DNA from: Candidatus Omnitrophota bacterium | GTDB lineage: Bacteria; Omnitrophota; Gorgyraeia; JAGLLT01 | DNA: 64,000 bases | Direction of reading: 5' to 3' | NCBI GenBank assembly: GCA_030632085.1 | Contig: DAOVJY010000002.1 | Location: 248,319 to 312,318 of the forward strand | Shown here: in pieces, positions 60 to 16,188 of the stretch | Layout: the number at the start of each line of letters is the position of its first letter | How positions within the stretch are numbered: the first letter of the stretch is position 1 | Made by a program: the position numbers and the translations under genes | The notes under the pieces: generated by a model | Database searches by the model: none | Told to the model about the DNA's origin: nothing | What the model saw: the letters and a program-made list of their open reading frames with translations, nothing else

Positions 60-88
60 TTGACAAGGGATGAGTGAAGTGGTATATT
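60..88 (+). promoter_or_regulatory. sigma70-like promoter upstream of abiEi: TTGACA (60-65), 17-bp spacer, TGgTATATT (81-88)
   Basis: Near-consensus -35 and extended -10 with 17-bp spacing read directly from the sequence. Confidence 0.5.
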
Positions 89-140
89 GTATCCATTCAT
101 AGTAATTCCATTTGAACTGGAAATAAAAGGAAATAAAACA

Positions 141-1782: not shown

Positions 1783-1879
1783 AATTTGTATTAATTGTGG
1801 GATGATTTTTTGGATGCGTAGCAATAGAGGGTTGAAGCAGTGACATTGCGCAAGTTCAAAAATTAAAATTATGGGGGAA

Positions 1880-1915
1880 GTGGGAAGAAAGAGAAATAGG
1901 TATCGTATGTCCCGA
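1880..1915 (+). repeat. REP/TIR-like repeat copy (GAAGAAAGAGAAATAgGTATcGTaTGTCCC); near-identical to the copy at 14882-14916
   Basis: Direct comparison with 14882-14916 and with the MITE right ends. Confidence 0.6.
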
Positions 1916-2066
1916 TTTTCCATATTTATGTTGTAGTTTATAATAAAATATTTGACAAATGATACTACTGGTAGTAACATATAAGAGATAACTAAAACAA
2001 AGTGGTGCGTTCGAAGGGGGAACCTCCACGATAAAATAAGTAAAACCTTCGGAAGCGGAGGTTTTT

Positions 2067-2975: not shown

Positions 2976-3496
2976 AAGAAGGAGGGGTGGGAGGCAGCAA
3001 AACAAAAACTGGTCTCCACTTTGAATCTCGAGTAAGCCTTGAAAAAGTAATCTCCGCACTTCCGGGCTATACCATATCAGATGATAGGGTATTTTTTCAA
3101 GGTGTAAAAGTTGCTGAACTTTATCAAAAGCACAAATTATACAAAAATCTTCTTAAACCCAATCACATAGATTACTCAGTAATTATTTCTAAAAAACTAC
3201 TCCCAGATGAAGCTATATTAATATTAAAAGATAAGACATTATACATAATAGAAATTAAATTTCAAAAGGTTTCAGGGTCTGTTGATGAGAAGCTTCAGAC
3301 CTGCGACTTTAAGTGCAGGGAATATAAAAAACTTCTTGCTCCATTAGGCATATCCGTTGAATATGTATATATATTAAATGATTGGTTTAATAAAAAAGAG
3401 TACAAAAATGTTCTTAATTATGTTAAATCAGTTGGATGTCATTATTTTTTTAATGAAGTGCCGCTAGAATTTCTAAACTTGCCAAAACCTGAATAG
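2972..3496 (+). CDS. Putative cognate Type II restriction endonuclease (small PD-(D/E)xK-like protein)
   Basis: Start overlaps the MTase stop (ATGA coupling). 174 aa with a D...IIEIKFQK segment compatible with a (D/E)xK catalytic motif. No recognisable family, so the specificity is unknown. Confidence 0.4.
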   Translation: MKEGGVGGSKTKTGLHFESRVSLEKVISALPGYTISDDRVFFQGVKVAELYQKHKLYKNLLKPNHIDYSVIISKKLLPDEAILILKDKTLYIIEIKFQKVSGSVDEKLQTCDFKCREYKKLLAPLGISVEYVYILNDWFNKKEYKNVLNYVKSVGCHYFFNEVPLEFLNLPKPE

Positions 3497-3675
3497 TTTA
3501 AAGGGGAACCTTGTATGGTATTGCACCCTTCATTCACCCTTGAAGTAAAACTGATTAAATTAAGTAAAAATCACGAGAAAAATCATAATAGCCTTAGAAG
3601 AATTGTGATTGATTCTTTTGTGAAAGAAAAGCTGGGCATGGCAATGGCGAAAATAGGTGATGATTTTATTTAAAA

Positions 3676-3699
3676 GTAATTAAGTATTGTGTCCCCGGA
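3676..3699 (+). repeat. REP/TIR-like repeat (AATTAAGTATTGTGTCCCCGGAA), copy 1 of a direct pair about 105 bp apart
   Basis: Matches the MITE right terminus TTAAGTGTTCTGTCCCCGGAA with two substitutions. Confidence 0.65.
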
Positions 3700-3756
3700 A
3701 CTATACAGCTTTTCTCGGAGGGATTGTATTCCAGTCCCAATAAAGCAGGAATTAAG

Positions 3757-3800
3757 GGGACGGTTCTATTTTAAAATAATTAAGTATTGTGTCCCCGGAA
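3757..3800 (+). repeat. Composite repeat: GGGGACGGTTCTATTTT block followed by REP/TIR-like AATTAAGTATTGTGTCCCCGGAA (copy 2)
   Basis: The GGGGACGGTTCTATTTT block recurs at 8609 and, degenerate, at 15571. The REP part matches 3676-3699. Confidence 0.65.
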
Positions 3801-3981
3801 TTACGTAAAAAGAAATAAATGTGGAATGTGGAGACTTGACCCCCATTGTGCTCTATTTTACTGATTTGTGATTCATGATAAGAAATATGGAAAATTTTCT
3901 TTCTTTCCATCTTATAAGAAACACTTGACAAATTGCATCATTTAATGTATAAGAGAAAGAAGAAAGTGAGGTGTTCAAATA

Positions 3982-4872
3982 ATGGAAGATAAAGACCAGA
4001 TAAAAGGATTTTTTGTCGAAGATGAACAATCATTCAAAAAAGAACAAGTCTTATCTTTAATTAACAGATGTAAAAAATATGCCAAACTTGTAGGTAGAAA
4101 AGGGCTTGTTCATATTGAAAAGAAAAATTTAACAGGCACAGACCAAATAAAGCTTTTTTTAATAACACGGCATTTGGGTGCAGACTTGGCAAAGTTAGAG
4201 CCTAATTTAAAGATTCCTTCTGAGATTGCAGATGTGCATACTTCTGAAATGGCAAAATTGTTATCTGTCTCTAATGAAAATGCTAGGACTAGAGCATCTG
4301 ATTTAATTCGTGATGGATTTGGACGTAAACCAAAAAAAGGATACATACGAGTATATTCATATCAAATTAGTAAATTTTTAGATTTACTTGAAAAAGGTGA
4401 ACAAAAAAAGGAAAGAGCCGCCAATAAAAAAACTTCCATTAAAAAAAGAGGGGTAAGAAAAATAATTGAAAATCCGAAGCTCAATGTTGACCAAGCGTTT
4501 AAGCGATTGTCTATAAATTTAGATGGTATTTTAGAAAAAAAACTTAAAGATTGTATTTTTTTCCAAGAAGATGCAAGCTTTAAATTTAATAAGAATTTTA
4601 CGGGGAAATCAAAACATAGTAAACAGACTAGAGGAATTCTATGCGCAGCCTATGTAATGTCTATTGGTTTAGGTTTACAGAGTTTTTCTAGCCGACAGAT
4701 AAAGGATGTTTGTTTTAATAGTAACATTGATGTAATGGGCTTGAATTATGCAACACGAGAATTAAAGAAGAGTGGATATATTTCTAAAGCGAGTAAATAC
4801 TCGCAAGATAATATAATCCTAGAAAAAGGTAAAGATAAGGCAAAAGAGATATTTAATGAGTTATGTGAATGA
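3982..4872 (+). CDS. Hypothetical protein: probable central winged-HTH (SEIADVHTSEMAKLLSVSNENARTRASDLIRDGF), lysine-rich linker, unknown C-terminal domain
   Basis: Long ORF with an AAAGTGAGG RBS. First gene of a three-gene operon bounded by REP copies upstream and a MITE downstream. Confidence 0.55.
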   Translation: MEDKDQIKGFFVEDEQSFKKEQVLSLINRCKKYAKLVGRKGLVHIEKKNLTGTDQIKLFLITRHLGADLAKLEPNLKIPSEIADVHTSEMAKLLSVSNENARTRASDLIRDGFGRKPKKGYIRVYSYQISKFLDLLEKGEQKKERAANKKTSIKKRGVRKIIENPKLNVDQAFKRLSINLDGILEKKLKDCIFFQEDASFKFNKNFTGKSKHSKQTRGILCAAYVMSIGLGLQSFSSRQIKDVCFNSNIDVMGLNYATRELKKSGYISKASKYSQDNIILEKGKDKAKEIFNELCE

Positions 4873-4954
4873 TTAAAATGAAATTATTGTAATTAAATTT
4901 ATCTAAGAGATTGATGGCATATATTTATTAAGACGATGTCCAAAAGGAGGAAAT

Positions 4955-5524
4955 GTGAAAAATATTACTGAAATCGATGTGATGAAAATTATTGATGACC
5001 ATTTTTCAAAAATACAAGATCGAGAGGCAAAGAATAGGATTCTTCGTTGGGCATGGGAGAAATTCTCAACTCAAGAGCTGCCCTTAGAAAGTGAAGAAAA
5101 AACCAAACAGAAAGATTCTAAAAAGAAAAAAGCACCTAAGAAAAATAATAAACAAAAGAAAAAAGTTAAATCTGGTCCTTGTTTAGTTAAAGATTTAAAC
5201 TTGAGGCCTTCAGGGGAAACAACTTTTAAGCAATTTGTACAAGACAAAAACCCTTCATCAAACCAAGAGAAATGCTTAGTAGCTGCTTATTATTTAAAGC
5301 AAAAACTAAAGAAAAAGACAGATGTCGATTCGATTTATACATGTTTTAAGGATGCGAAATGGCGAGTTCCATCTAATTTGGAAAATACACTTTGTGTTGT
5401 TGCCGTCCAAAAAGGTTGGCTTGATACAACTGACTCTAACGCCATAACAATACCAACCTTAGGTGAAAATTATATAGAACATGATTTGCCCAGAAAAGTA
5501 AAAGGAAAAAATAATCATGGTTAA
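4955..5524 (+). CDS. Hypothetical protein with a long poly-lysine linker (KKKKAPKKNNKQKKKVK) between two small domains
   Basis: ORF with a GGAGG RBS. Overlaps the next gene by 8 nt. Confidence 0.5.
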   Translation: MKNITEIDVMKIIDDHFSKIQDREAKNRILRWAWEKFSTQELPLESEEKTKQKDSKKKKAPKKNNKQKKKVKSGPCLVKDLNLRPSGETTFKQFVQDKNPSSNQEKCLVAAYYLKQKLKKKTDVDSIYTCFKDAKWRVPSNLENTLCVVAVQKGWLDTTDSNAITIPTLGENYIEHDLPRKVKGKNNHG

Positions 5525-6296
5525 AAATGCTTTCAATTTAACAAATTTACTTGGCAGTATTCCAGTTACATTAAAAAATGAATTGGTAAAAACTTTTAAT
5601 GAAATTGCACGAAATTATCGAGAACAACGCTGGGAACCATCGGAGTTAAATGGAGGTAAATATTGTGAGGTTGTTTACACCATTTTAAAAGGGTATACTG
5701 AGGGAAAATTTCCTTCAAAAGCAAGCAAACCGAAGAATATGGTAGATGCTTGCAATAAATTTGAGCAAATTCCTTCATCATCATTTCCGAGGTCAGTAAG
5801 GATTCAAATTCCTAGAATAATCATTGCTCTTTATGAAATACGTAACAATAGAGGCGTGGGGCACGTTGGTGGCGATGTTGACCCAAATCATATGGATGCT
5901 ACAATTGTGCTTTATATGGTTAAATGGATTATGGCTGAGTTGATCCGTTTATTTCATAATGTTAACACTGATATTGCAACTGAAGCAGTAGAACGAATTA
6001 CAGATAGGACTTTGCCTATTTTATGGAAAGTTGGCGGAAAAATTCGTGTGCTTGATACTTCTATTAACATGACAGAAAAGACACTAGTTGTTTTATATTA
6101 TAATCGAGATTCAGTCGCCGAAAATTTATTGGTTGATTGGGTAGAATACACAAATCTTTCTGTATACTGTAGAGACATTTTGCGGAAAGCCCATAAAAAT
6201 AAATTAATTGAATATGATAAAGCAAATAAACAAGTCACAATATCTCCCAAAGGCATAAAATACGTAGAAGATAATATAAATTTGGAAAAATTTTGA
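5517..6296 (+). CDS. Hypothetical protein with a possible HEPN-like R-x6-H motif (IRNNRGVGHVGG)
   Basis: The Rx4-6H spacing matches the HEPN RNase catalytic motif. Located in a defence island. No further homology recognised. Confidence 0.4.
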   Translation: MVKNAFNLTNLLGSIPVTLKNELVKTFNEIARNYREQRWEPSELNGGKYCEVVYTILKGYTEGKFPSKASKPKNMVDACNKFEQIPSSSFPRSVRIQIPRIIIALYEIRNNRGVGHVGGDVDPNHMDATIVLYMVKWIMAELIRLFHNVNTDIATEAVERITDRTLPILWKVGGKIRVLDTSINMTEKTLVVLYYNRDSVAENLLVDWVEYTNLSVYCRDILRKAHKNKLIEYDKANKQVTISPKGIKYVEDNINLEKF

Positions 6297-6391
6297 CCTT
6301 CATGGCCGATTTAAAATGTTATACATGATTATAGAAAAGGATTTGTTTCCTTTTATATTCTTAAAAAAAGTTCTAAATATACTTCCGGCAT

Positions 6392-6720
6392 ACTTCCGGG
6401 GACAGAACACTTAATTGTTGAAAAGGCGTCATTGTTCTGATAGAATCTATGTATGGCAAGGATAGCGAGAATAGTTATTCCCAATCACCCTCATCATATA
6501 ATCCATCGCGGTAATCGCCGGGAAAAAGTTTTCTTTAGTGAAGACGACAAACAGGCTTACCTTTGTTTATTAACTAATCAGGCCAAGAAATCGGGAATAG
6601 AATTTTCTTTAGGGGATGAGAGATTTATTAAGAAGATTGAAGGAATTACCGGAAAGATATTGCAAAAAAATAGGCCGGGACATATGCAGAAAGATAGTTA
6701 AGTGTTCTGTCCCCCGAAGT
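6392..6720 (+). mobile_element. MITE-like element (about 320 bp) with about 23-bp terminal inverted repeats (ACTTCSGGGGACAGAACACTTAA) enclosing a 5'-truncated RAYT/IS200-like transposase remnant
   Basis: Left IR at 6392-6414 and right IR at 6698-6720 are reverse complements. The interior is 90% identical to the element at 10873-11198. Confidence 0.75.
6453..6701 (+). pseudogene. N-terminal fragment (82 aa) of a REP-associated tyrosine transposase (RAYT, IS200/IS605 Y1 family)
   Basis: MARIARIVIPNHPHHIIHRGNRREKVFF..DDK..YL.LL matches the RAYT N-terminus. It terminates long before the HuH/Y catalytic motifs. Confidence 0.7.
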
Positions 6721-6765
6721 CTATTGACTCACTGGAAGATAATTTGATAGTGGAGGATTCGGAAA

Positions 6766-7410
6766 ATGAGTGAGACTATACCTAAAGATCCCAAGATTTA
6801 TCATATTGTACATCTTGATAGATTGGAGTCGATTATTTCTAAACAGTATTTGTTAAGTGATACAGATGGTCAGCAATACGATTTGGACGGTACTACTATA
6901 GGAATGTCGAAAATAAAAGAACGAAGAATGTATAATAATTTTATGAATTATCCAGATCTTTGCGTAGGTGCATGTGTTCCTTTTTATTTTTGTCCACGAT
7001 CGATTATGTTATACATATTTTACGAGAATAATCATCCGGAGATTACGTATCGAGGAGGGCAGGAACCTATTGTTCATTTGGTAGCGGATTTACGTAAAAC
7101 AGTTACGTGGGCGGAATCTTTGGGCAAGCGCTGGGTATTTACTGATTCGAATGCAGGGTCATCCTATTTTAACGATTTTGCAAAATTAAACCAACTTAAT
7201 CAAATTGACTGGAACGCGTTAAGAGCAACATCTTGGTCAGCGGTTAAAGAAAAGAAGCAAGCCGAGTTTTTGATCGAAGAATGCTTTCCTTGGGAATTGA
7301 TAGAATGTATCGGTGTATATTCAATAGTGCAGTACCAACAGGTTGCTCAAGCACTCCAATCAGCAACACATCGACCACCCGTGAAGGTGATGCGTACCTG
7401 GTATTATTAG
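6766..7410 (+). CDS. darT: DarT, DNA ADP-ribosyltransferase toxin (DUF4433)
   Basis: IYHIVHLDRLESII...VPFYFCPRSIMLY...GGQEPIVHLV...FTDSN...EFLIEECFPWELIECIGVYS closely matches the DarT family. Confidence 0.85.
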   Translation: MSETIPKDPKIYHIVHLDRLESIISKQYLLSDTDGQQYDLDGTTIGMSKIKERRMYNNFMNYPDLCVGACVPFYFCPRSIMLYIFYENNHPEITYRGGQEPIVHLVADLRKTVTWAESLGKRWVFTDSNAGSSYFNDFAKLNQLNQIDWNALRATSWSAVKEKKQAEFLIEECFPWELIECIGVYSIVQYQQVAQALQSATHRPPVKVMRTWYY

Positions 7411-7425
7411 AAGGAGGAATGAAAT

Positions 7426-8484
7426 ATGATTATATTTAAAACAGGTAATCTTTTGACCGAAGACGTAGAAGCAATTGTTAATACAGTTAATTGTGTTGGT
7501 ATTATGGGACGAGGAATTGCGCTTCAGTTCAAAAAAAGGTTCCCGGAAAATTTTAAAGTATACGCAGCAGCCTGTAAAAAAAAGGCGATTCTTCCCGGTA
7601 AAATGTTTGTTTATAAGACTGACTCACTTATAAATCCAAAGTATATAATCAGTTTCCCTACAAAGCGGCATTGGCGTGGAGCCAGCAGAATGGAAGATAT
7701 TGAGAATGGTTTGCAGGATTTGGTTAAAGTCATTAAAGATTTGAAGATTCAATCCATCGCCCTACCTCCGCTAGGGTGTGGGCTTGGGGGCCTTGATTGG
7801 AATACGGTACGCGTACGGATTGAATTTGTCCTGAATGAGTTGCGCGATGTCGATGTTGTTGTTTTTGAGCCAAAAGGGGCTCCGACTCCTGAAGAGATGG
7901 TAAAAAACAGGAAAGTACCTAAAATGACTCCTGGGCGCGCAGCATTGGTAGAACTGATGCATCGTTATTTTTTAGGGCTTCTTGATCCCTTTATAACGCT
8001 CCTGGAAGTACACAAATTGATGTATTTCCTTCAAGAAAGCGGAGAGAGCCTTCGTTTACAGTACGCAAAAGCACCATATGGTCCATATGCGAAAAATCTT
8101 CGCCATGTGCTCAATGCTATAGAAGGCCATCTCATTTTTGGTTACGCCGACGGAGAAGATAAGCCGGATAAGCAACTCAAGCTGGTGCCTGGTGCTTATG
8201 AAGATGCGACACGGTTTCTTAATGAGCACAAAGGAACTAAGGAACATTATGACAAAGTATCTGATCTTGTAGACGGATTTGAGACTCCTTTTGGTATGGA
8301 ATTATTATCAACAGTGCATTGGGTAATAACAAAAGAATCAGCACATTCTTTTAGTGAACTTATTACGAAGGTATATGATTGGAATAAGCGCAAGAAGCAG
8401 TTTTCTCAGCGACAGATTCAATTAGCCGTCAAGGTGTTAGAGCAAAAAAAATGGATTAATATTACGAATTGGAGTGAAGTTTAA
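7426..8484 (+). CDS. darG: DarG antitoxin: N-terminal macrodomain (ADP-ribosylglycohydrolase) plus C-terminal DarT-neutralising domain
   Basis: AIVNTVNCVGIMGRGIALQFKKRFPE is a macrodomain signature. Sits immediately downstream of darT. Confidence 0.85.
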   Translation: MIIFKTGNLLTEDVEAIVNTVNCVGIMGRGIALQFKKRFPENFKVYAAACKKKAILPGKMFVYKTDSLINPKYIISFPTKRHWRGASRMEDIENGLQDLVKVIKDLKIQSIALPPLGCGLGGLDWNTVRVRIEFVLNELRDVDVVVFEPKGAPTPEEMVKNRKVPKMTPGRAALVELMHRYFLGLLDPFITLLEVHKLMYFLQESGESLRLQYAKAPYGPYAKNLRHVLNAIEGHLIFGYADGEDKPDKQLKLVPGAYEDATRFLNEHKGTKEHYDKVSDLVDGFETPFGMELLSTVHWVITKESAHSFSELITKVYDWNKRKKQFSQRQIQLAVKVLEQKKWINITNWSEV

Positions 8485-8580
8485 TGAATTTTAGTGATAT
8501 AACTGAAAAAGGGCTTGAGACAATTATCGTCGAGTCCCTGATAAACGATGCCGTTTATGTTCAGGGCAATAGTGTTTAAT
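8485..8580 (+). pseudogene. 31-codon ORF (MNFSDITEKGLETIIVESLINDAVYVQGNSV*) resembling the N-terminus of restriction-enzyme/helicase subunits; likely a gene remnant
   Basis: Starts on the darG stop. The E..ii..L.....GY pattern is typical of restriction R-subunit/helicase N-termini. Truncated at a REP-like CTTCCGGGTG tandem. Confidence 0.3.
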
Positions 8581-8608
8581 ACTTCCGGGTGCTTCCGGGT
8601 GAGGAAAA

Positions 8609-8645
8609 GGGGACGGTTCTATTTTTTAAAAAAATTGGCAGGAAA
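8609..8645 (+). repeat. Intergenic repeat GGGGACGGTTCTATTTTTTAAAAAAATTGGCAGGAA
   Basis: Recurs at 15571-15636 (with a short insertion) and partially at 3757-3773. Confidence 0.6.
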
Positions 8646-8682
8646 TGCCTTTTGTCCGATAGAAAAAAAGGAGAGTGGCATT

Positions 8683-9048
8683 ATGGTTATATTGGTTAAA
8701 TCGTTTGGTATTCTCATGGTAGCCCTTGGAGCTATTTTCCTGGCCAGGCCGGCTGGGATGAAAAACTACATAGCTTTCTGGGTGAAAGGAAAGAGGATTT
8801 ACACAGGCGCTGCTTTAAGTCTTATAATAGGTATTATCTTTTTGCTTGCCGCTTCAGGATGCAAGGTCGGTTGGTTTGTAGCGGTATTTGGCGTTCTGGC
8901 GTTTATCAAAGGCATTGCGCTGTTTGTCCTTGGACAGAAAAAGATAATGTCCATGATGAAGTGGTGGCAGGGAAGGTCGCTTTCATTTCTACGCTTCCAT
9001 GCCCTTTTAGCCTTAGCCGCCGGCGCCCTGCTTATCTACGCTGCATAA
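8683..9048 (+). CDS. Small integral membrane protein (about 4 TM helices)
   Basis: Hydrophobic segments. AAAGGAGAG RBS 7 nt upstream of the ATG at 8683, so the ORF-track start at 8548 is unlikely. Confidence 0.5.
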   Translation: MVILVKSFGILMVALGAIFLARPAGMKNYIAFWVKGKRIYTGAALSLIIGIIFLLAASGCKVGWFVAVFGVLAFIKGIALFVLGQKKIMSMMKWWQGRSLSFLRFHALLALAAGALLIYAA

Positions 9049-9071
9049 ATATGCAATTCAGGACAAATTCA

Positions 9072-9090
9072 GGGGACACAATATTTAATT
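9072..9090 (-). repeat. REP/TIR-like repeat in inverted orientation (GGGGACACAATATTTAATT)
   Basis: Reverse complement matches AATTAAATATTGTGTCCCC. Confidence 0.55.
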
Positions 9091-9209
9091 ATTGACTTTT
9101 CAAATAGATAAGTATTGCGAGTGGGGGGAGTCCTGAGTATTTTTGAAGGGCATACCTAAATTTTTGTAAGTCCCAAAATGATGCGTTTCTAATTTTTTAA
9201 GGATGGAGT

Positions 9210-9482
9210 ATGGAGAAGGATTTAATAAATATAAAAGCAAGTGAAATTGCCGACTTTGAGTATTGTGAAGTTAGCTGGAGTTTTTCTAATATGCAACAGG
9301 GCGATGTTCAGATAGCTAACTTAAAAAAGGACTTTGCCAAGGGGAGTGTTGCTCATCAAGAACATATTCGAGCAGAAGAGGCGCTAAGTCAACTTATTCG
9401 TTATAAGAATCATGCTAAAGTTATCTTTATTCTATTTGCTTTAGGATTCCTAGTCTATTTACTTTACTTAGTGTGGAGATAA
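9210..9482 (+). CDS. Cas4/RecB-like nuclease, N-terminal half (first Fe-S cysteine, motif I region) ending in a TM helix
   Basis: ASEIADFEYCEVSWSF matches the Cas4 N-terminal S..l..f.yC motif, followed by KGSVAHQEHI (G..H). C-terminal hydrophobic helix FILFALGFLVYLLYLVW. Confidence 0.6.
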   Translation: MEKDLINIKASEIADFEYCEVSWSFSNMQQGDVQIANLKKDFAKGSVAHQEHIRAEEALSQLIRYKNHAKVIFILFALGFLVYLLYLVWR

Positions 9483-9483
9483 G

Positions 9484-10005
9484 ATGTCCATTGTGTTGAC
9501 AATTCTAATATTAGGTTGTTGCGCGCTTTTTTTATATATCTTAATTAAATCATTAATTAACGATAGAAATATAATCTATGTTGGCGATAAGAACAAAGTT
9601 TTAGTATATAATGAGGGAGATATAAGGATTATTGGAAGACCCGATTATATAAAAAGGGAAGAGAATAATTATGTCGCATACGAATATAAGAGCCTAAAAA
9701 TAAAATCCAAAAATGCCTATTTGGATCATAAGTTGCAATTAGCGTGCTATATGCGACTGGTAGAAAAGACCTTTAAACAGAAGCCTGATTATGGAATAAT
9801 TACTTATGGAAACAAGAGAAGATTTAAAATTAGTAATACTTTGGAACTACAGCAGAAATTGGATAAGAGAATCGACAGGCTTAAAGAGCTAAAAACTGGA
9901 AGAGCCGTGCCTGTTAGAAGCCATAATGTGTTTGAGAAATGCTTTGCTTGTAAGTATTATCCTATCTGTAAACACCGATTAGGGAAAAAGAAAATGGAGG
10001 GTTAA
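9484..10005 (+). CDS. Cas4/RecB-like PD-(D/E)xK nuclease, C-terminal half: TM helix, motif II (GRPDYI), motif III (EYK), QhxxY (QLACY), and a C-x2-C-x5-C cluster
   Basis: The motif order and the CFACKYYPIC spacing match the Cas4 4Fe-4S/DUF83 family. Starts 1 nt after the upstream stop, in a different frame. Confidence 0.65.
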   Translation: MSIVLTILILGCCALFLYILIKSLINDRNIIYVGDKNKVLVYNEGDIRIIGRPDYIKREENNYVAYEYKSLKIKSKNAYLDHKLQLACYMRLVEKTFKQKPDYGIITYGNKRRFKISNTLELQQKLDKRIDRLKELKTGRAVPVRSHNVFEKCFACKYYPICKHRLGKKKMEG

Positions 10006-10006
10006 A

Positions 10007-10405
10007 GTGATAATACCAAATGAAGTAAAAAATTTATTTGATAAACAGTCTTTAGTTGCCTTTGGCACCGCGGACAAGCAAGGAAATCCAAATGTTGTTC
10101 CTATATTCTGGAAAGAGATCATCGATGGGGAAAGAATTTTGTTAATCGATAATTTTATGAAGATGACCAAAAAAAACCTTTTAGAAAATGGCAATGTTTG
10201 CCTGGCTTTTTGGGATTCAAAAACAAATGAGGCTTATAAGATTGAGGGGGAAGCTGTCTACTATGCACAAGGTTCGATTTATGAACAAGGCAAAAAATTT
10301 ATACAATCAAAAAAACCAGCAGCAATTCCAAAAGGAGTTGTTGAAATTAAAGTAAAAGAAATTTACACTATAAAACCGGGTTCCGACGCGGGTAAAAGAT
10401 TATAA
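10007..10405 (+). CDS. Pyridoxamine 5'-phosphate oxidase-like FMN-binding split-barrel protein
   Basis: LVAFGTADKQGNPNVVPIFW...ERILLIDNFM..TKKNLLENGNV is typical of the PNPOx-like family. Confidence 0.55.
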   Translation: MIIPNEVKNLFDKQSLVAFGTADKQGNPNVVPIFWKEIIDGERILLIDNFMKMTKKNLLENGNVCLAFWDSKTNEAYKIEGEAVYYAQGSIYEQGKKFIQSKKPAAIPKGVVEIKVKEIYTIKPGSDAGKRL

Positions 10406-10449
10406 AAAGCGGTCACCTTTTTCATTGAGAAGATAAGAGAAAATTAGTA

Positions 10450-10481
10450 GAAAGATAGTTAAGTGTTCTGTCCCCTGAAGT
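10450..10481 (+). repeat. Solo MITE right end (AAAGATAGTTAAGTGTTCTGTCCCCTGAAGTC)
   Basis: 31 of 32 identity to the MITE right end at 6689-6720, with no partner left end nearby. Confidence 0.7.
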
Positions 10482-10494
10482 CTTACAATTCAGT

Positions 10495-10523
10495 TGCTTT
10501 TTTGGCTAATTTTTGGTATAAAT
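10495..10523 (+). promoter_or_regulatory. Conserved strong sigma70 promoter cassette, copy 1: TTGCTT, 17 bp, TGgTATAAAT
   Basis: Near-identical 45-nt block repeated at 17546, 18433 and 20813. Confidence 0.6.
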
Positions 10524-10684
10524 GGGGACATTGGACAGGTTGTATTTTAATGTGGGTAGATATTAAAGCAGTATGGCATTGTGGATGTGAAGAGTATATA
10601 ATTATGGAAGAATATAGAAATATAATAAAGACTCAAATAGAGCTTGCTTTTAATAGGGCAGTAGTGTATATTGTAAATAGCAAA

Positions 10685-10732
10685 CCCGCCGAGCCTCTGC
10701 TTAGCATGCTTAATTTCGGCGGGTATTTTTTT
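10685..10732 (+). terminator. Rho-independent terminator (CCCGCCGAG...TTCGGCGGG followed by T8)
   Basis: GC-rich 8-9 bp stem plus a U-tract, read directly. Confidence 0.65.
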
Positions 10733-10750
10733 GCATACAGAAGGGGGTGC

Positions 10751-10900
10751 TATGGAATATAAAAAGCATCCCCTTACTTATGCGGAACAAGCCGATCTCC
10801 TCATTTCACGCAAACTATCCGCTGACCGTAATGCTCTCATTGAAACGCTTAAAAATGTTAATTATTATCGGAGTTCCGGGGACAGAACACTTAATTATTG
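10751..10900 (+). pseudogene. N-terminal 49-codon fragment of an Abi_2-family (AbiD/AbiF-like) abortive-infection gene, truncated by MITE insertion
   Basis: MEYKKHPLTYAEQADLLISRKLSADRNALIETLKNVNYYRSSG matches the Abi_2 N-terminus (LT.EEQ..LL..RGL....YYRLSGY). The reading frame runs straight into the MITE left IR at 10873. Confidence 0.5.
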
Positions 10901-11198
10901 AAAAGGTGTTGTTGCTTTGATAAAATCTATGTATGACAAGGATAGCGAGAATAGTTGCTTCCAATCACCCCAATCATATAATCCATCGCGGCAATCGCCG
11001 GGAAAAAGTTTTCTTTAATAAAGATGACAAACAGGTGTATCTTCGTGTATTAACTAATCAGGCCAAGAAATCGGGAATAGAATTTTCTTTAGGGGATGAG
11101 AGGTTTATTAAGAAGATTGAAGGAATTACCGGAAAGATATTGCAAAAAAATAGGCCGGGACCTATGCGGAAAGATAGTTAAGTGTTCTGTCCCCGGAA
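10873..11198 (+). mobile_element. Second copy of the RAYT-derived MITE, with terminal inverted repeats
   Basis: About 90% identical to 6392-6720. IRs GGGGACAGAACACTTAA / TTAAGTGTTCTGTCCCC. Confidence 0.75.
10933..11181 (+). pseudogene. RAYT/IS200-like transposase N-terminal fragment (82 aa), copy 2
   Basis: MTRIARIVASNHPNHIIHRGNRREKVFF... is identical in architecture to the fragment at 6453-6701. Confidence 0.7.
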
Positions 11199-11565
11199 TC
11201 TTCCGGAATTTTATAGATCCTGGAAGGCCCAAAAAAGGGAGTTGACCTCTTTTTTTCCTTTTTTTTGGTAAATCTGACATCGGAGTAAACTTTATAAAAC
11301 TCCATAGTTTCTTGGCTAGAAATGAAGGATGTAATATTTTCTGCTTGTAGCCTCACAGAAATTAAATACAACCTCCGCTTGATTATCAGTATTTAGTTTC
11401 GTGTGAACAGCACACATTAATATCTCTTGCATATTCCCCCTTTCAGCGTTAAAATACAAATATTGCAAGTAATTTAATTATAGCGTTACTATAATAAAAT
11501 ATCAGCAATATATTATTAGTTACTCAAGGATAAAATATACTCTCAAAAAATATTAAGTTTTTAAG

Positions 11566-11670
11566 AAAAAAACATAGCATATCCCAAGAAACGTTTGCCA
11601 AAGAAATAAAGATAACATATAGCACTCTCATTAAAATTGAAGTGGGTGCAAGCAAAAATCCTATCTTGTA
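11566..11670 (+). pseudogene. Remnant of an XRE-family HTH regulator (..SQETFAKEIKITYSTLIKIEVGASKNPIL*)
   Basis: The helix-turn-helix core (S.E.LA...G.S...I...E.G...P) is present, but there is no start codon and no N-terminal helix. Confidence 0.35.
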
Positions 11671-11751
11671 AATCTTGCAAACTTTCCAGGGAATCGTTAA
11701 TGCGTTGGAGGTAAAAATAGATGAGTTGGCTCGTAAGTAAAGGGATTAACT

Positions 11752-12342
11752 ATGACTAAAACAGATATTTTGCTTATGTTATTATTTTCAGATAGAGCTG
11801 CTCCGATAGTAGGTACAACCCGCTTACAAAAGCTCTTATTTCTGAGCGAACACGAAAGTGAAGTTAAGTGCGATAAGGAATCTTTTAATTTTGAAGCCTA
11901 CAAGTTTGGGCCAGTGTCTAAAACGCTATACGACGATATTGAGTTTTTAGTAAACGTAGGTTTTTTAGAAAAAACTGGAGAGGACGCAAGTATTGATATA
12001 TATTCTTTAGATGACTTAGATAGTATTAATGTTGAAAATTTAATTGAAACTTCAGAAAACGAAAAAGTAGACCTAATTAGCGAAAAGGAAGAAGGAATAT
12101 TTTCAGAAGATGACGATGAGAACAAAGCTACCACAGAAGATGATCTGACAGTTTATAAAATCACAGATAAAGGTATTGGATACCTAAAAGAAAATAATCT
12201 AATAGGAGCAAAAGAAGCCAAAGAAATAGAAAATATAAAAAAGCGCTATGGAAAGAAATCTCTTATTGAATTATTGCGATATGTATATATGAAATATCCA
12301 AAATATACTACTGAGTCAGAAATAAAAGATGAATTATTATGA
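11752..12342 (+). CDS. Panacea-domain (DUF4065, SocA-like) putative antitoxin PanA with an acidic C-terminal extension
   Basis: TTRLQKLLFLSEHE...FEAYKFGPVSKTLYDDI matches the Panacea signature (KLQKLLYyaq...w.yGPv). Confidence 0.65.
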   Translation: MTKTDILLMLLFSDRAAPIVGTTRLQKLLFLSEHESEVKCDKESFNFEAYKFGPVSKTLYDDIEFLVNVGFLEKTGEDASIDIYSLDDLDSINVENLIETSENEKVDLISEKEEGIFSEDDDENKATTEDDLTVYKITDKGIGYLKENNLIGAKEAKEIENIKKRYGKKSLIELLRYVYMKYPKYTTESEIKDELL

Positions 12343-12884
12343 GTAATGGAAATAAAGAATTCAGTAATATTGGATTTATGCTATCTATTTTTGGGCCTAG
12401 TGCTATTTCTGCAATGTTTGCAATAATTACAAAACCACTCACTGAAAAATCAACCTTTGATGCTTTACGTAAAAACTTTCTAGAAACAATACGATTTCGC
12501 ATGGCTGCCGAGATAGCAGTGATGTTGCCTCCAAAGACAGGAAGAACGGTGAATGATGATTATGTTTCAATGTGTAAAACAAAACTAAATGAATATTTCG
12601 CAAATAATTCTGTTTTGTTGGTTGATTTTTTATACTCGGAAAAGTTATATATGTCCTACGGAAAGCTTTTTATTATATTTAAATACGCTATAGTGCTAAT
12701 TCCAGTGGTAGCTATCTTATGCGGCATCATATTGATTATCTATTTTCGTGATACGCTCAGTATAAAAAATTGTGGATTGTTTGTGTTTTTTTCTCTAGTG
12801 TTTGTTTTTGCAACTTGGCTTTTTAAAGAGCGTCGGCGAGATCAATACAGTGATTTATGTTCAAAATATGAAGTGGTTAAATAG
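12339..12884 (+). CDS. Membrane protein (N-terminal soluble part plus 2-3 TM helices); candidate PanT-type toxin partner
   Basis: ATGA start/stop overlap with the Panacea gene. Hydrophobic helices at residues about 108-170. Confidence 0.4.
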   Translation: MSNGNKEFSNIGFMLSIFGPSAISAMFAIITKPLTEKSTFDALRKNFLETIRFRMAAEIAVMLPPKTGRTVNDDYVSMCKTKLNEYFANNSVLLVDFLYSEKLYMSYGKLFIIFKYAIVLIPVVAILCGIILIIYFRDTLSIKNCGLFVFFSLVFVFATWLFKERRRDQYSDLCSKYEVVK

Positions 12885-13310
12885 GTGACTATTAACACTA
12901 AGTCAAATCCTTCTGAAAAAAAGATAGTAGCAGCGGTGGCTAAATTATTGCGGAAAAATGGGTATATAAATCAAAAAACTGAGGCCCAGATCTGTGAAAG
13001 ATTCATTGATTTAGTCTGTTGGGATAAAAGAAAGAAAAAGATTGTTGCTGTAGAGGCAAAGGTAAAGGCCCCATCAAAAGCATTTGAGCAGGCAATGCGA
13101 TATAGATATGTTGCAGATCATGTGTATGTTGCAATATTGAGAAATGGGTGTAATAAGAGAGCGATAGAATTGTCAGATAGAACTGGAATTGGATTAATTT
13201 TCGTAAGACGCGACTCATTAGAACGTTATTATGCAAAGATAGAAATAGAACCTGTCAAGTCTGAGTTAAAAAACGAAAAGCTTGCAAAGTATTTTTTTAG
13301 TGATGTTTAG
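12885..13310 (+). CDS. Hjc/Mrr-like PD-(D/E)xK nuclease-fold protein (141 aa)
   Basis: E...L...GY...FIDLVCW...IVAVEAKVK reproduces the archaeal Holliday-junction resolvase Hjc motif order (E, D, ExK). GTG start abuts the upstream stop. Confidence 0.45.
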   Translation: MTINTKSNPSEKKIVAAVAKLLRKNGYINQKTEAQICERFIDLVCWDKRKKKIVAVEAKVKAPSKAFEQAMRYRYVADHVYVAILRNGCNKRAIELSDRTGIGLIFVRRDSLERYYAKIEIEPVKSELKNEKLAKYFFSDV

Positions 13311-13331
13311 ATTATAGTGTTGGAGGTTGTT

Positions 13332-14744
13332 ATGGAGAAAAGTTTCTTATTAAGAATTGGTTCTAATGCAGAAAAGCAATATGTAAAAAAAATGGGGTCA
13401 CTTTTTTCAGGATTGGTGGTTAGAGCGAACTATTTTGAATCTGCGCCCGGAATGTTAAGTGCATTATTTTTAAAATTTGATTCTTTAAATCCATCAAAAG
13501 GATTTATTATTGATCCCGTCACGTATGTTTTTATGCTTGACTCAAAATATATCAGAAGCTGGCAAAAGATTAATGGGGAGAAATCGGAGGAAAAAATAAG
13601 AAAAGATTTACATATAGATGTTTCAGAAAATGTCCCAAATGAGTGGGTGCGTACAATACAAGATCCTACCGAAAAGCAAAAAAATAAAGTTGAAATCTAT
13701 AATATAAAAAAGGCTTATCGTAAATTAGCAGATTCCTATTTTACTCCTAACATGGCCCATGAAATAGGGAAACGGTCACTTGTCAAGGAAGATTTTAGTG
13801 AGCAAGATATACGTGAATTTGTAATGAAAGTGATCAATTACCAAGTGCAGGCGATTAGTACGCGGTATGATACAGCAAAATATTCCGATTTTAAAGCTAT
13901 TGTTCCACGCCCGCTGATGATACTTTCGCCCTATTTTTTGATAAGAAATCAAAGTGATTTAGACTTTATGGAAAGAATATGGAAGCGATTTGATTCCCAA
14001 TATACCAGAGATGATGGGGCCATTGTAGTACATTGTGCGGCAGAATTTTTTGAGATTAATTATCGGTCAATTTTAGAAGTTGTAGCTAAATTGAGTAAAA
14101 AAAATATTTTTTTGTGGATTAATAAATTTGACGAAAAAAAAGTTTCATCTACTCAACTTGATGGATATATAAAATTTGTAAGCAGTGCATATGATCAGGG
14201 CATAAGTGTAACTAACCTGTATGCGGGGGGATTATCCTCTTTTCTTTTTCCATTTGGTCTTACTGGAATGGTAAATAATATAGGATATGGTTTGCAGCGT
14301 GATGCTGAACCAGTTCAAGGAGGAATACCAACAGCTCAATTTTATATACCTAAATTACATATTCGCGCACAGGTTTTAGCAACTTACGATTTATTAGTAA
14401 AAAATGAATTAGGCGGTACAGCAAAAGACTTTTATCGTAACGTTTGTTCTTGTCCGATATGTAAAAAAGGAATCCGCGAGGAATTAAGCGATTTTATCAG
14501 TTTTTATGGTGAAGCGGATTATCCTAAAAGCAATTCAGAAAGCTCACGAAAGTATCCAACATCAAAAGCATTAAAGCGATGTTTTTTCCATTTTCTTTTT
14601 TCTAGATTGAAAGAATACAAATGGGCGATAAAGGCAAGTAAGCAGGAAGCAATAGATTTGCTAGATAGCGAAATAGCTTTATGGCGTACCGATAAAGATC
14701 ATCTTCAGAGGATGAGAGATGCGTTAGATGCAATAGCAAAATAG
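13332..14744 (+). CDS. Hypothetical 470-aa protein with a CSCPIC (CxCxxC) motif and a downstream His. The start at 13332 follows a GGAGG RBS.
   Basis: Long ORF, last gene of a four-gene operon. The CxCxxC...H spacing resembles the Zn site of TGT/DpdA-like transglycosylases; this is a weak inference. Confidence 0.5.
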   Translation: MEKSFLLRIGSNAEKQYVKKMGSLFSGLVVRANYFESAPGMLSALFLKFDSLNPSKGFIIDPVTYVFMLDSKYIRSWQKINGEKSEEKIRKDLHIDVSENVPNEWVRTIQDPTEKQKNKVEIYNIKKAYRKLADSYFTPNMAHEIGKRSLVKEDFSEQDIREFVMKVINYQVQAISTRYDTAKYSDFKAIVPRPLMILSPYFLIRNQSDLDFMERIWKRFDSQYTRDDGAIVVHCAAEFFEINYRSILEVVAKLSKKNIFLWINKFDEKKVSSTQLDGYIKFVSSAYDQGISVTNLYAGGLSSFLFPFGLTGMVNNIGYGLQRDAEPVQGGIPTAQFYIPKLHIRAQVLATYDLLVKNELGGTAKDFYRNVCSCPICKKGIREELSDFISFYGEADYPKSNSESSRKYPTSKALKRCFFHFLFSRLKEYKWAIKASKQEAIDLLDSEIALWRTDKDHLQRMRDALDAIAK

Positions 14745-14881
14745 ATAAAAGTGGGAAAAGGGGTCAGGGGTCAGAGTCATTTTTCATTCTGGCAGATAAG
14801 TATTGTATTGTTAGATTTTCGCATGTCTCAGATTAATTAGGAAGCGTCCCTATTAAAATGAGAAGAAGAGAGCGGGGCGCA

Positions 14882-14916
14882 GGAAGAAAGAGAAATAAGT
14901 ATTGTGTCCCTAGAAT
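14882..14916 (+). repeat. REP/TIR-like repeat (GGAAGAAAGAGAAATAAGTATTGTGTCCCTAGAA)
   Basis: Matches 1880-1915 and the family consensus. Confidence 0.6.
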
Positions 14917-14973
14917 TTCGCCAAAGAAAAGTTACAGGAAATATTTAATAAAAAACTAGAAAGAAAAAATATA

Positions 14974-15537
14974 GTGGAAAATTCACTTCAAGCAAAGACA
15001 TATAATACATTAGCCATTGTTAGTTTGTTTCTTAGTTTACTTATCTTTATTCCGCTTACAGGATTGGCTGGTTTAGTAGTGGGTATAATTGCTCTAGCTA
15101 AAATCTCGAAATGTAAAAAAGAACTTACTGGTCAAGGTTTGGCTATTGCAGGCACGATAATTGGTGGCATCAGAACAGTCTTATTACTAGTACTTGTCAT
15201 AGGTTTCTTTGCAGGTCTTATAGGACCAGGTATTCAGTCGGCAAAAACAGAAGCATTAGAAGTGCAAGCAGCAAGCAATTTAAGACAAACTGGCATTGCT
15301 CTATATGCCTACGCAAAAAATCATGAAGGTAATCTACCTGAAAAACTTTCTGAACTAAATGATGCTGGTTATATTGATGATGCGAGTATAGGCATTTTAT
15401 ATGATAATTTTCAACAGGGGTATTTTTGTGGCGATAAAAATCTTTATCGTATGGCGGAGGAAGATATACTGATTAAAGACACAAAATACAATATTAACCT
15501 CTATGCCAACGGAAGCGTTGGCCCTTCCCACCATTAA
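14974..15537 (+). CDS. Membrane-anchored protein with a pseudopilin/DUF1559-like segment (SNLRQTGIALYAYAKNHEGNLP)
   Basis: Two N-terminal TM helices, then the NLRQIGLAL.mY motif typical of DUF1559 / type II pseudopilin-like proteins. Confidence 0.5.
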   Translation: MENSLQAKTYNTLAIVSLFLSLLIFIPLTGLAGLVVGIIALAKISKCKKELTGQGLAIAGTIIGGIRTVLLLVLVIGFFAGLIGPGIQSAKTEALEVQAASNLRQTGIALYAYAKNHEGNLPEKLSELNDAGYIDDASIGILYDNFQQGYFCGDKNLYRMAEEDILIKDTKYNINLYANGSVGPSHH

Positions 15538-15570
15538 TAGTAAAAAAATAAAAGAAGGTGGCGAATTAAA

Positions 15571-15636
15571 GAGACGGTTCTATCCTATAACGGTAAAGCT
15601 ACGGTGGACAAGTTTTTTAAAAAAATTGGCAGAAAG
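15571..15636 (+). repeat. Degenerate copy of the GGGGACGGTTCTAT...TTTTTTAAAAAAATTGGCAGRAA intergenic repeat
   Basis: Compare 8609-8645. Confidence 0.5.
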
Positions 15637-15645
15637 ACACAATAA

Positions 15646-16158
15646 ATGAATATAAAATCAGGAGACATATTATTATTTAAAGCTGAAAAAGGTATATCCA
15701 GGCTCATTGCCTGGGGCACAAACAGCAAGTATTCGCATGTGGCGGTGTGTGTGTCGGCTGAGATGAACCTTGCTATAGAAGCTATGGCAGGTGGGGTGAG
15801 GGCGAGAGATATAAGAACGATAGAAGAGCCGTATGATATATATAGAATTAAAGAGGGACATAGTTATAATCTAAATAAGACTATTTCATTTCTGGTGAGT
15901 AAGCTGAATTTAAAATATGATTACTTAGGTGTATTTTTTCTTGGATTTATAAAGCTTATGTCAAAGATTGGCAAGCCGCTGAAAAAGGCGGCGAATAAGT
16001 GGCAGATAGACAGGGATTATTTCTGCTCGGAGTTATGCTATAAGGCTTTTTATAATGGCGGTAATCTGGATATTGTGCCTGATACTGATGAGGCAGATGT
16101 TACTTCGCCGGGTGATATTTCTAAAAGTTCCATAGTGGAACTAATAGCTAATGGCTAA
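15646..16158 (+). CDS. YiiX/YebB-like permuted papain-fold peptidase (C92 family)
   Basis: GDILLFKAEKGISRLIAWGTNSKYSHVAV and DYFCSELCYKAF resemble E. coli YiiX (GDIIFQ...WSHTGI; YCSELV). Confidence 0.5.
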   Translation: MNIKSGDILLFKAEKGISRLIAWGTNSKYSHVAVCVSAEMNLAIEAMAGGVRARDIRTIEEPYDIYRIKEGHSYNLNKTISFLVSKLNLKYDYLGVFFLGFIKLMSKIGKPLKKAANKWQIDRDYFCSELCYKAFYNGGNLDIVPDTDEADVTSPGDISKSSIVELIANG

Positions 16159-16188
16159 TAGCTAAGAGCGTACGAATGGAGATATAGA

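Follow-up and report, generated by a model that had tools for sequence, protein, structure and literature searches.

The window, the whole 64,000-nucleotide stretch of Candidatus Omnitrophota DNA analyzed here (contig DAOVJY010000002.1 of assembly GCA_030632085.1), carries two abutting open reading frames (ORFs) that together appear to encode one membrane-held nuclease of the Cas4 family. ORF1 (9210..9482, 90 amino acids, TAA stop) would be the small subunit, a Cas4 N-terminal module with a C-terminal transmembrane (TM) anchor; ORF2 (9484..10005, 173 amino acids) would be the large subunit, an N-terminal TM anchor followed by the Cas4 or PD-(D/E)XK core. All features of the pair lie on the plus strand. 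ORF2 is in the +1 frame relative to ORF1, and a single base (g, 9483) separates the TAA from the ATG. The presumed coupling junction (9475..9486) comprises GGAG at 9475-9478, the ORF1 stop codon at 9480-9482, the one base at 9483, and the ORF2 ATG at 9484-9486, with the GGAG five nucleotides upstream of this ATG. ORF1 is itself preceded by a Shine-Dalgarno-like stretch, AAGGATGGAG (9199..9208), which presumably functions as such, and the final ~15 bases before the ORF1 ATG are the only upstream DNA that can be aligned among four close loci.

What marks the pair as a Cas4-family nuclease? The first-pass annotation of this DNA had read the Cas4/DUF83 motifs, in order, across the two frames, and all of them are found at their places. 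In ORF1 they are the N-terminal cysteine helix FEYCEVSW (9255..9278), whose Cys19 is the presumed fourth ligand of an iron-sulfur (Fe-S) cluster, and motif I, G45..H49 (9342..9356), whose histidine is the presumed active-site metal ligand. The Cys, Gly, and His are each invariant in alignments A3 and A11, and Cys19 and G..H align to the N-terminal Cys and G..H of the Cas4 chains 8d3l and 4r5q. ORF2 contains motif II, GRPDYI (9634..9651), with the putative catalytic Asp54; motif III, EYK (9682..9690), with Glu67 and Lys69; the QhxxY motif QLACY (9736..9750), with Gln85 and Tyr89; and C-x2-C-x5-C within CFACKYYPIC (9940..9969), where Cys153, Cys156, and Cys162 are three of the four presumed Fe-S ligands. 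Asp54, Glu67, Lys69, Gln85, and Tyr89 are invariant across the 34 sequences of alignment A2, as are the Gly and Pro of motif II, while the C-terminal cysteines are invariant or nearly so and align to the triad of Cas4 structures. All four Cas4-type cysteines are present, distributed over two polypeptides (C19 in ORF1; C153, C156, and C162 in ORF2).

The first-pass annotation had allowed that the alignment to Cas4 might fail under a profile search. ORF2 passes the gathering scores of Pfam Cas_Cas4 (PF01930; 39.1 bits against 22.7) and PDDEXK_1 (40 bits against 22), and PADLOC Cas4 models match it, down to 1.4e-15; its other PADLOC matches are to Cas1-fusion models and, weakly (3.2e-6) and over the shared PD-(D/E)XK core, to DruK. 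The TIGR00372 equivalog cut-off of 65 bits is reached neither by ORF2 (53.4) nor by the concatenation of the two products (51.7). The ORF2 match spans only positions 53-159 of the 160 in the Cas_Cas4 profile, and ORF2 thus lacks the first third of the domain.

It is to this third that ORF1 corresponds. When the soluble part of ORF1 is compared by hhalign with the N-termini of 25 single-chain relatives whose TM regions were removed, the match has a probability of 96.5% (E 7.9e-10), and the Cys and G..H stand in register. Likewise, the ORF1-type protein P0277 matches TIGR00372 positions 2-45 of 180 (E 1.3e-5), and a soluble relative of 198 amino acids, P0028, matches positions 5-178. The family profile A3 matches the Cas4 chains 8d3l and 4r5q over an N-terminal segment that contains the Cys and the His and over a C-terminal one, the two being collinear; a phmmer search of PDB sequences with the concatenation gave nothing meaningful, and only the family profile found them. 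Concatenated pairs are collinear with the two-TM single chains P0068 and P0074. P0028 aligns too, and its only major difference is a gap precisely at the two-helix hairpin. The two-TM single chains and this gapped soluble relative align in register, which bears out a further proposal of the first-pass annotation, a TM hairpin inserted between motif I and motif II. The invariant columns of the concatenated alignment are C19, G45, H49, D144, E157, K159, Q175, Y179, C243, C246, and C252. The motif set is not a product of chance: its residues vary little or not at all within the family, and the ratio of nonsynonymous to synonymous substitution rates (dN/dS) of the two ORFs is 0.13-0.26.

An AlphaFold2 (AF2) model of the concatenated product is consistent with this assignment. 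Built with a 125-row alignment, it has a mean predicted local distance difference test score (pLDDT) of 85, with the core above 90; with no alignment the pLDDT is 50. The best Foldseek matches in the PDB are I-C Cas4 (8d3q), SSO0001 (4ic1), ACE1 (9iab), and Cas4-Cas1 (7mi4), with E ~1e-5 and probability 1.0, and after this Cas4 group come MGME1, AdnAB, RecE, Exo5, and Dna2. We take the model to support the Cas4 fold and not the detailed geometry between the subunits.

Is the division into two genes genuine? The close subfamily is small: nine close ORF2 relatives were found (9 clusters in 5.8 billion proteins), eight of them 166-184 amino acids long and the ninth, P0009, a 130-amino-acid fragment that belongs to the decayed copy in locus L015. 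The sole match in a scan of a genome collection was a metagenome-assembled genome (MAG) already known as locus L003. The contigs of three of the eight were examined, in independent assemblies from JGI, NCBI, and ENA, and in each (L001/2, L003/4, and L005/6) the arrangement is exactly 90 amino acids, a stop codon, one nucleotide, an ATG, and 171-184 amino acids. These three loci are 59-82% identical to the window pair (ORF2 67-81%). Their junctions vary in bases, reading TAA-g-ATG or TGA-a-ATG, and retain GGAG or GGAA. The dN/dS is 0.14-0.26 for ORF1 and 0.13-0.20 for ORF2; both ORFs are under purifying selection. Since the split is conserved and dN/dS is low in both ORFs, a frameshift or a recent pseudogene is excluded as its cause, and the split is genuine.

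More distant pairs are divided in the same manner but joined differently. In L007 (80+171 amino acids) the gap is 11 nucleotides and in L029 (81+174) it is 3 nucleotides; L009 (76+179) has an overlap of 7 nucleotides, and L016, L019, L023, and L030, from a high-GC (guanine plus cytosine) lineage, have 82+~173 amino acids and a 4-nucleotide ATGA overlap. Across the family the junctions comprise gaps of 1, 3, and 11 nucleotides and overlaps of 4 and 7 nucleotides, and this variety fits ordinary translational coupling.

Some copies are broken. In L015 (3600-4081; JGI Ga0180433_10001969) a deletion runs from just after the ORF1 EYC.. to the ORF2 '..DKDKAL', stop codons follow downstream, and other residues stand in for the catalytic Asp and Lys (GRPIYI, YEHES). 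P0013 is a decayed copy that lacks the TM helices and motifs II and III. High-GC metagenomic copies (L021/L022, 6001-6345; L024-L026) are truncated or frameshifted in ORF2 just past the motif III Glu (IPVEQ), which reflects either gene decay or faulty assembly.

In a search of 1.84 billion representative proteins, the ORF2 profile gave 771 matches at E<=1e-3 and 199 at E<=1e-10. We inspected 156 sequences, namely the eight close homologues (P0009 left out) and the more distant profile matches listed. The split type, with at most 200 amino acids and one N-terminal hydrophobic helix ahead of the Cas4 core, accounts for 105 of the 156; 36 are longer than 200 amino acids, and the other 15 are short sequences without a TM helix, mostly truncated-looking fragments. 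Most of the long relatives begin with a SASDIEkYgYCPLsWW motif and G..H, then have 2, 4, or 8 predicted hydrophobic helices, then the core. Examples of such single chains are Methermicoccus shengliensis WP_052353351 (266 amino acids), Methanofollis formosanus WP_220682637 (274), and a Thermoplasmatota MAG protein (325). Their source names are "CRISPR-associated protein Cas4" or "Dna2/Cas4 domain-containing protein", and P0068 (Methermicoccus) and P0074 (Methanofollis) pass the TIGR00372 cut-off, with 98.7 and 94.8 bits.

The small subunit is easily overlooked. In L007 and L009 the gene callers left a gap of 220-300 nucleotides upstream of ORF2, and this gap hides a TTG-started ORF1 of 76-80 amino acids that carries SE(L/I)xxYxYCQRAWWY, G..H, and a C-terminal hydrophobic helix. 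A profile built from eight ORF1 sequences matched 289 proteins, of which the best 120 are almost all stand-alone proteins of 75-90 amino acids labelled "hypothetical protein" or, by JGI, Cas4. Both of the ORF1-type matches that were inspected at their locus are directly followed by a gene for a ~173-amino-acid Cas4 core. The split membrane Cas4 is no oddity of one genome but belongs to a large family, whose split forms are kept in hundreds of bacteria and whose fused, single-chain forms are archaeal.

Three of the doubts raised in the first-pass annotation can be settled here. It had asked whether orthologues are single ORFs with TM helices: bacterial forms are split, and archaeal forms are single chains with 2, 4, or 8 predicted helices. 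Orthologues are not uniformly single soluble proteins, since three close loci and distant relatives are split as well. Nor are the hydrophobic segments missing elsewhere, for they are kept in 105 of the 120 relatives of at most 200 amino acids and in all single-chain forms checked.

The long forms show further variety. A multi-TM group, composed of single chains of 543-596 amino acids (P0020, P0039, P0060, P0082, P0125, and P0131), of ~325-340 amino acids (P0034, P0066, P0117, and P0143), and of 635 amino acids (P0050), carries its Cys/His module and its nuclease core on either side of 4 or 8 predicted TM helices. Compared with Pfam, these inserts gave nothing informative, the sole hint being a sub-threshold DUF2339 match in P0039. 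P0050 additionally has C-terminal TRAM nucleic-acid-binding domains. In the long forms P0021, P0062, and P0067 the N-terminal module is absent, a hint that splits also occur elsewhere in the chain.

How would the two halves sit in the membrane? A hydrophobic helix on each side of the break, as first-pass annotation had it, is confirmed by Kyte-Doolittle means of 2.67 (ORF1 residues 71-89) and 2.98 (ORF2 residues 3-21). TM helix 1 (ORF1 residues 70-89; 9417..9476; Kyte-Doolittle mean 2.67-2.79) is a predicted N-in, C-out tail anchor, with three Lys or Arg in the preceding 15 residues, one after the helix, and a tail of two residues; in the AF2 model it is helical, with pLDDT above 90. TM helix 2 (ORF2 residues 2-21; 9487..9546) is predicted to run N-out, C-in. 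The same charge bias is seen in the family. The 105 split-type large subunits have on average 0.14 Lys or Arg in the ~4 residues before the helix and 3.66 in the 15 after it, and small subunits have 2-4 before the helix and 0-1 in a tail of 2-6 residues. By the positive-inside rule, this bias suggests that ORF1 is tail-anchored with its N-terminus inside, that ORF2 is N-out and C-in, and that both soluble parts are cytoplasmic; a cytoplasmic location would also suit Fe-S assembly, which has to take place in the cytoplasm. Two hydrophobic helices break up the Cas4 domain after the G..H helix and the gene is cut exactly between them, and it is at this same insertion point that the single-chain homologues have their 2, 4, or 8 predicted TM helices. 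ORF2 was also considered as a lipoprotein on account of ILGC near its N-terminus; this was rejected, as a charged n-region is missing and relatives do not keep the Cys.

We propose that ORF1 and ORF2 are two translationally coupled genes that make one membrane-held nuclease of the Cas4 family, with a RecB-like PD-(D/E)XK core and an Fe-S cluster, and we put the probability of this reading at roughly three in four. Each half would be held in the cytoplasmic membrane by one TM helix, and the two helices would pair within it. ORF1 (N-in) would contribute one Fe-S cysteine and the metal-binding histidine; ORF2 (N-out, C-in) would contribute the Asp/Glu/Lys set, QhxxY, and three cysteines. The cluster and the active site would then assemble across the subunit interface, on the cytoplasmic face. 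In SSO0001, His62, the equivalent of the ORF1 histidine, is a catalytic metal ligand (PMC13621843, PMC12501428), and four cysteines hold the Fe-S cluster (PMC13621843, PMC12501428, PMC5704561). Given these equivalences, we expect cluster and active site to be composites of both subunits and neither half to be active alone, which would make this an obligate two-subunit enzyme. It would act on DNA ends or single-stranded DNA as other Cas4, AddB, or RecB-type enzymes do, only at the membrane.

Several points weigh against this proposal. That the two halves form a complex, bind an Fe-S cluster, insert into the membrane, and cleave DNA is in each case a prediction. The TM helices were called by a simple hydropathy window and not by a dedicated predictor. 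The window ORF1 by itself has no match in Pfam, NCBIfam, or PADLOC. An AlphaFold model of the concatenated product, as the first-pass annotation had suggested, yielded the Cas4 fold and only part of the rest: its N-terminal 42 residues are unreliable (pLDDT 38-52), so that it does not place Cys19 and His49 beside the ORF2 residues, and it fuses TM1 and TM2 into a single long helix where a hairpin would be expected, an artefact that comes from linking the two chains with no loop between them.

The biological role is the weakest step of the proposal. We tentatively suggest, at somewhat less than even odds, that in this genome and in the closest relatives the nuclease acts against mobile elements by degrading linear DNA that enters through the membrane; tethering would keep it off the chromosome. 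The surroundings of the pair bear on this suggestion. Positions 87-17316 of the window form a dense island of defence and toxin-antitoxin genes whose GC content is the same as that of the rest of the window. It comprises AbiEi/AbiEii (87-1782), a type II N6/N4 methylase with a small PD-(D/E)XK protein as putative restriction endonuclease (2067-3496), DarT/DarG (6766-8484), a SocA-Panacea antitoxin-like gene (11752-12342), behind which come genes for a membrane protein and a NucS/HsdR-N-like PD-(D/E)XK protein (12339-13310), and a PLD-family nuclease (16189-17316). Similarly, the pair in L005 lies between a type I restriction-modification (RM)/CTD6/MC2 cluster and a TIR-STAND protein, a DUF4917 protein, and AbiGi. 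Members of the close subfamily are few and occur in four unrelated contexts, two of them dense defence islands, and the decayed copies L015 and P0013 fit the turnover typical of defence genes.

A bolder version of this suggestion, which we regard as doubtful, makes the pair a self-contained and hitherto unrecognised heterodimeric 'gatekeeper' defence module at the inner face of the membrane that destroys linear phage, conjugative, or transforming DNA on entry. The Fe-S cluster and active site would form only when the two membrane-anchored halves meet. On this view the multi-TM forms of archaea and the pairs of Chloroflexi would each vary the same theme.

Other observations speak against a defence role. 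The context of L001 looks housekeeping, a scan of viral contigs found no relative, and no system-specific model of PADLOC-DB v2, beyond generic Cas4, covers the pair. Pairs of the large Chloroflexi-type branch have a stable synteny in three genomes (L007, 2149-6324; L009, 2272-7770; L029, 2460-8999), with the order (N6/N4 methylase), SSB, DUF3467, translin-like, ORF1, ORF2, NAD kinase, a ~175-amino-acid (173-amino-acid) protein, and a RecN-like SMC ATPase, and this SSB/RecN synteny points to repair or recombination rather than defence. The foremost alternative is the same architecture put to housekeeping use, either in repair or recombination, where it would process DNA ends, or at the membrane, where it would process DNA that the cell takes up. 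Its further support comes from the archaeal single-chain genes, which stand beside RNase H/TrmO or near XPB/Bax1, and from the published observation that Chloroflexi inherit solo-Cas4 vertically (Hudaiberdiev et al. 2017, PMC5704561). For the window subfamily we consider it somewhat less likely than defence, in view of the rarity of this subfamily, its four unrelated contexts with two dense defence islands among them, and its decayed copies. Branches of the family may differ in role. In a high-GC lineage (L030/L031, 1020-5767) the pair divergently adjoins an HNH_2 nuclease, a HIT-family protein, and a 714-amino-acid protein without domain match, a possible alternative functional partnership.

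The remaining alternatives concern the architecture itself. ORF2 might be a self-sufficient membrane nuclease, with ORF1 a regulator, an assembly factor, or a vestige outside the active site. ORF2 does hold the D/E/K residues, QhxxY, and three cysteines, and a solo-Cas4 mutant of Methanosarcina mazei without an Fe-S cluster stayed active, according to work cited in PMC13621843. However, Cys19, G45, and H49 of ORF1 are invariant in split and fused forms alike, ORF1 is under purifying selection and always adjacent to and translationally coupled with ORF2, and the equivalent histidine binds metal in SSO0001 (PMC13621843, PMC12501428), all of which makes this improbable.

We give still less credence to a role in trans in CRISPR adaptation, serving a CRISPR-Cas locus elsewhere in the genome. 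It would accord with the name 'CRISPR-associated protein Cas4' that pipelines give to relatives and with the TIGR00372 scores of the single-chain forms. The window ORF2, however, falls below that cut-off, and membrane tethering would be hard to reconcile with a Cas4-Cas1-Cas2 complex. The 64-kilobase window contains no CRISPR array, and a comparison of its 59 ORFs with PADLOC gave no Cas family other than Cas4-like among the 25 of 141 families listed, where a weaker match or a small cas2 could escape. The statement of the first-pass annotation that there is no CRISPR-Cas locus holds for the window to that extent. Likewise, no cas gene is present in any of the relatives' loci with called genes.

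Programmed +1 frameshifting at AGA-TAA-G, joining the ORFs into a 263-amino-acid chain in the manner of prfB with an upstream Shine-Dalgarno-like GGAG, is very improbable. The +1 frame of ORF2, the GGAG just 5' of the stop, and the one-base gap are what such a mechanism would call for, but ORF2 always has its own ATG at the right distance from the GGAG, and a slip from AGA to GAU would give poor tRNA re-pairing. Moreover, the junctions of distant pairs put ORF2 in differing relative frames (gap 3/11, overlap 4/7 nucleotides), so that no single recoding mechanism could be conserved, and the variable junction geometry rules out a conserved programmed frameshift. Finally, although archaeal single-chain two-TM homologues and decayed close-family copies (L015, P0013) do exist, a frameshift introduced in sequencing or assembly, or the recent decay of a single-chain membrane Cas4 into a pseudogene, one of the two readings offered by the first-pass annotation, is the least likely of all, given the same split geometry in independent assemblies at 59-82% identity with differing stop codons, the uniform 166-184 amino acids of close ORF2 homologues save P0009, the low dN/dS of both halves, the GGAG ahead of a conserved ATG, and the predominance of split pairs in the family; its other reading, a genuine two-piece nuclease, is the one that stands.

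Several other features of the window deserve mention. Directly after the pair lies a gene for a PNPOx-like (FMN-binding split-barrel) protein (10007-10405), with its GTG start one base past the ORF2 stop and GGAGG 5 nucleotides upstream, a junction as tight as that between ORF1 and ORF2. In L001, L003, and L005 this gene does not adjoin the pair, and it is therefore probably not a conserved partner. Four ORFs of the island have no Pfam or PADLOC match, three (296, 189, and 259 amino acids) between the RM module and DarTG (3982-6296) and one (475 amino acids) after the PD-(D/E)XK gene (13317-14744); they are candidate uncharacterised defence genes. A repetitive extragenic palindromic (REP)-like element, AAGTATTGTGTCCCCGGAA (<=3 mismatches), occurs in 9 copies in the first 15 kilobases against 0 expected (3682-3700, 3782-3800, 6394-6412 on the minus strand, 6700-6718, 9068-9086 on the minus strand, 10461-10479, 10874-10892 on the minus strand, 11180-11198, and 14897-14915). 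The copies are always between gene cassettes of the defence island, the inverted copies at 9068 and 10461 bracket ORF1, ORF2, and the PNPOx-like gene, and similar GTGTCCCC/GTGCCCCC motifs flank the pair in L005. A remnant of a REP-associated transposase (RAYT) was considered for 10933-11181, but this fragment has no Pfam match and the reading is not claimed. In the flanking DNA of the four close loci there are no conserved boundaries or repeats, and no mobile-element ends were identified. Across positions 1-64000 almost all long ORFs are on the plus strand and the GC skew is positive in every 4-kilobase bin (0.15-0.28), consistent with a leading-strand segment without a replication landmark inside the window.

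What does the pair add to the view of Cas4? Cas4 is usually seen as a small soluble enzyme, and this family departs from that view. The Cas4 fold tolerates the insertion into the membrane of 2 to 8 predicted helices at one point, and the bacterial gene is usually cut in the middle of that insertion. NCBIfam, Pfam, and PADLOC hold no model specific to the split membrane architecture, and a search of open-access papers and preprints for membrane-bound, transmembrane, or split Cas4 found nothing relevant, an absence that is no proof. Databases already contain the architecture without recognising it. Pipelines label the large piece "Cas4" and often miss the small piece or call it "hypothetical", and because of such annotation surveys may overcount CRISPR-type Cas4 and overlook a membrane-bound nuclease system. 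Confining a nuclease to the cytoplasmic face of the membrane is a simple way to tell incoming from resident DNA and, if this is what the pair does, would be a new and very compact defence logic. If the role is instead in repair, the family would represent membrane-associated DNA-end processing in Chloroflexi and methanogens.

In comparison to CRISPR-associated Cas4 (PF01930/DUF83, TIGR00372, COG1468; 4IC1, Pcal_0546 4R5Q, 8D3Q, 7MI4), the pair has the same fold and the same ordered motifs, namely the N-terminal Cys, G..H, D, ExK, QhxxY, and C-x2-C-x5-C. In biochemical terms the Cas4 family is defined by a metal-dependent exonuclease (5'-3', on ssDNA) or endonuclease activity and by a bound [4Fe-4S] or [2Fe-2S] cluster. 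It differs in that it is not beside cas1, cas2, or an array in the window, its domain is cut by two TM helices and encoded by two genes, and it scores under the TIGR00372 cut-off. CRISPR-associated Cas4 is a single soluble polypeptide that docks on Cas1-Cas2, whereas the pair is two chains, each with a hydrophobic helix of 19-20 residues. By fold, motifs, and Pfam threshold we place it in the Cas4 family as a solo-Cas4 and not as CRISPR-associated Cas4 proper. Like the solo-Cas4 proteins (PMC5704561; M. mazei solo-Cas4, PMC12501428), the pair stands alone, outside CRISPR loci and recognised mobile elements. A monophyletic solo-Cas4 group was described in many Chloroflexi (Hudaiberdiev et al. 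2017, PMC5704561), and this group may include the Chloroflexi-type pairs seen here. That study treats Cas4 proteins as four-Cys units, while in the pair the His and one of the four Cys belong to a second, small membrane protein; the words 'transmembrane' and 'split' are absent from the main text of PMC5704561.

Outside these two groups, ACE1 is a Cas4-family nuclease of a non-CRISPR defence system and the third among the structural matches to the pair. It is not known to carry membrane segments, forms single PDB chains of 266-269 amino acids, and has a pAgo as its partner; the surroundings of the pair contain no Argonaute. The Fe-S RecB-family domains of AddB/AdnAB, Dna2, Exo5, and MGME1 share the PD-(D/E)XK core and are further structural matches. 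In AddB, Dna2, and Exo5 a cysteine cluster staples the N- and C-terminal parts of the nuclease domain together. These enzymes are soluble large helicase-nucleases or monomers, whereas here the 'staple' would link two polypeptides at a membrane, and an Fe-S cluster and a catalytic metal site drawn from two polypeptides would be an unusual inter-subunit design for a PD-(D/E)XK nuclease. Finally, EndA and NucA are DNA-uptake nucleases that are TM-tethered and act on DNA at the envelope, with another fold and facing outward. The likeness to the pair is that of a TM-tethered nuclease, but the charge bias of the pair and its presumed Fe-S requirement argue for the cytoplasmic face.

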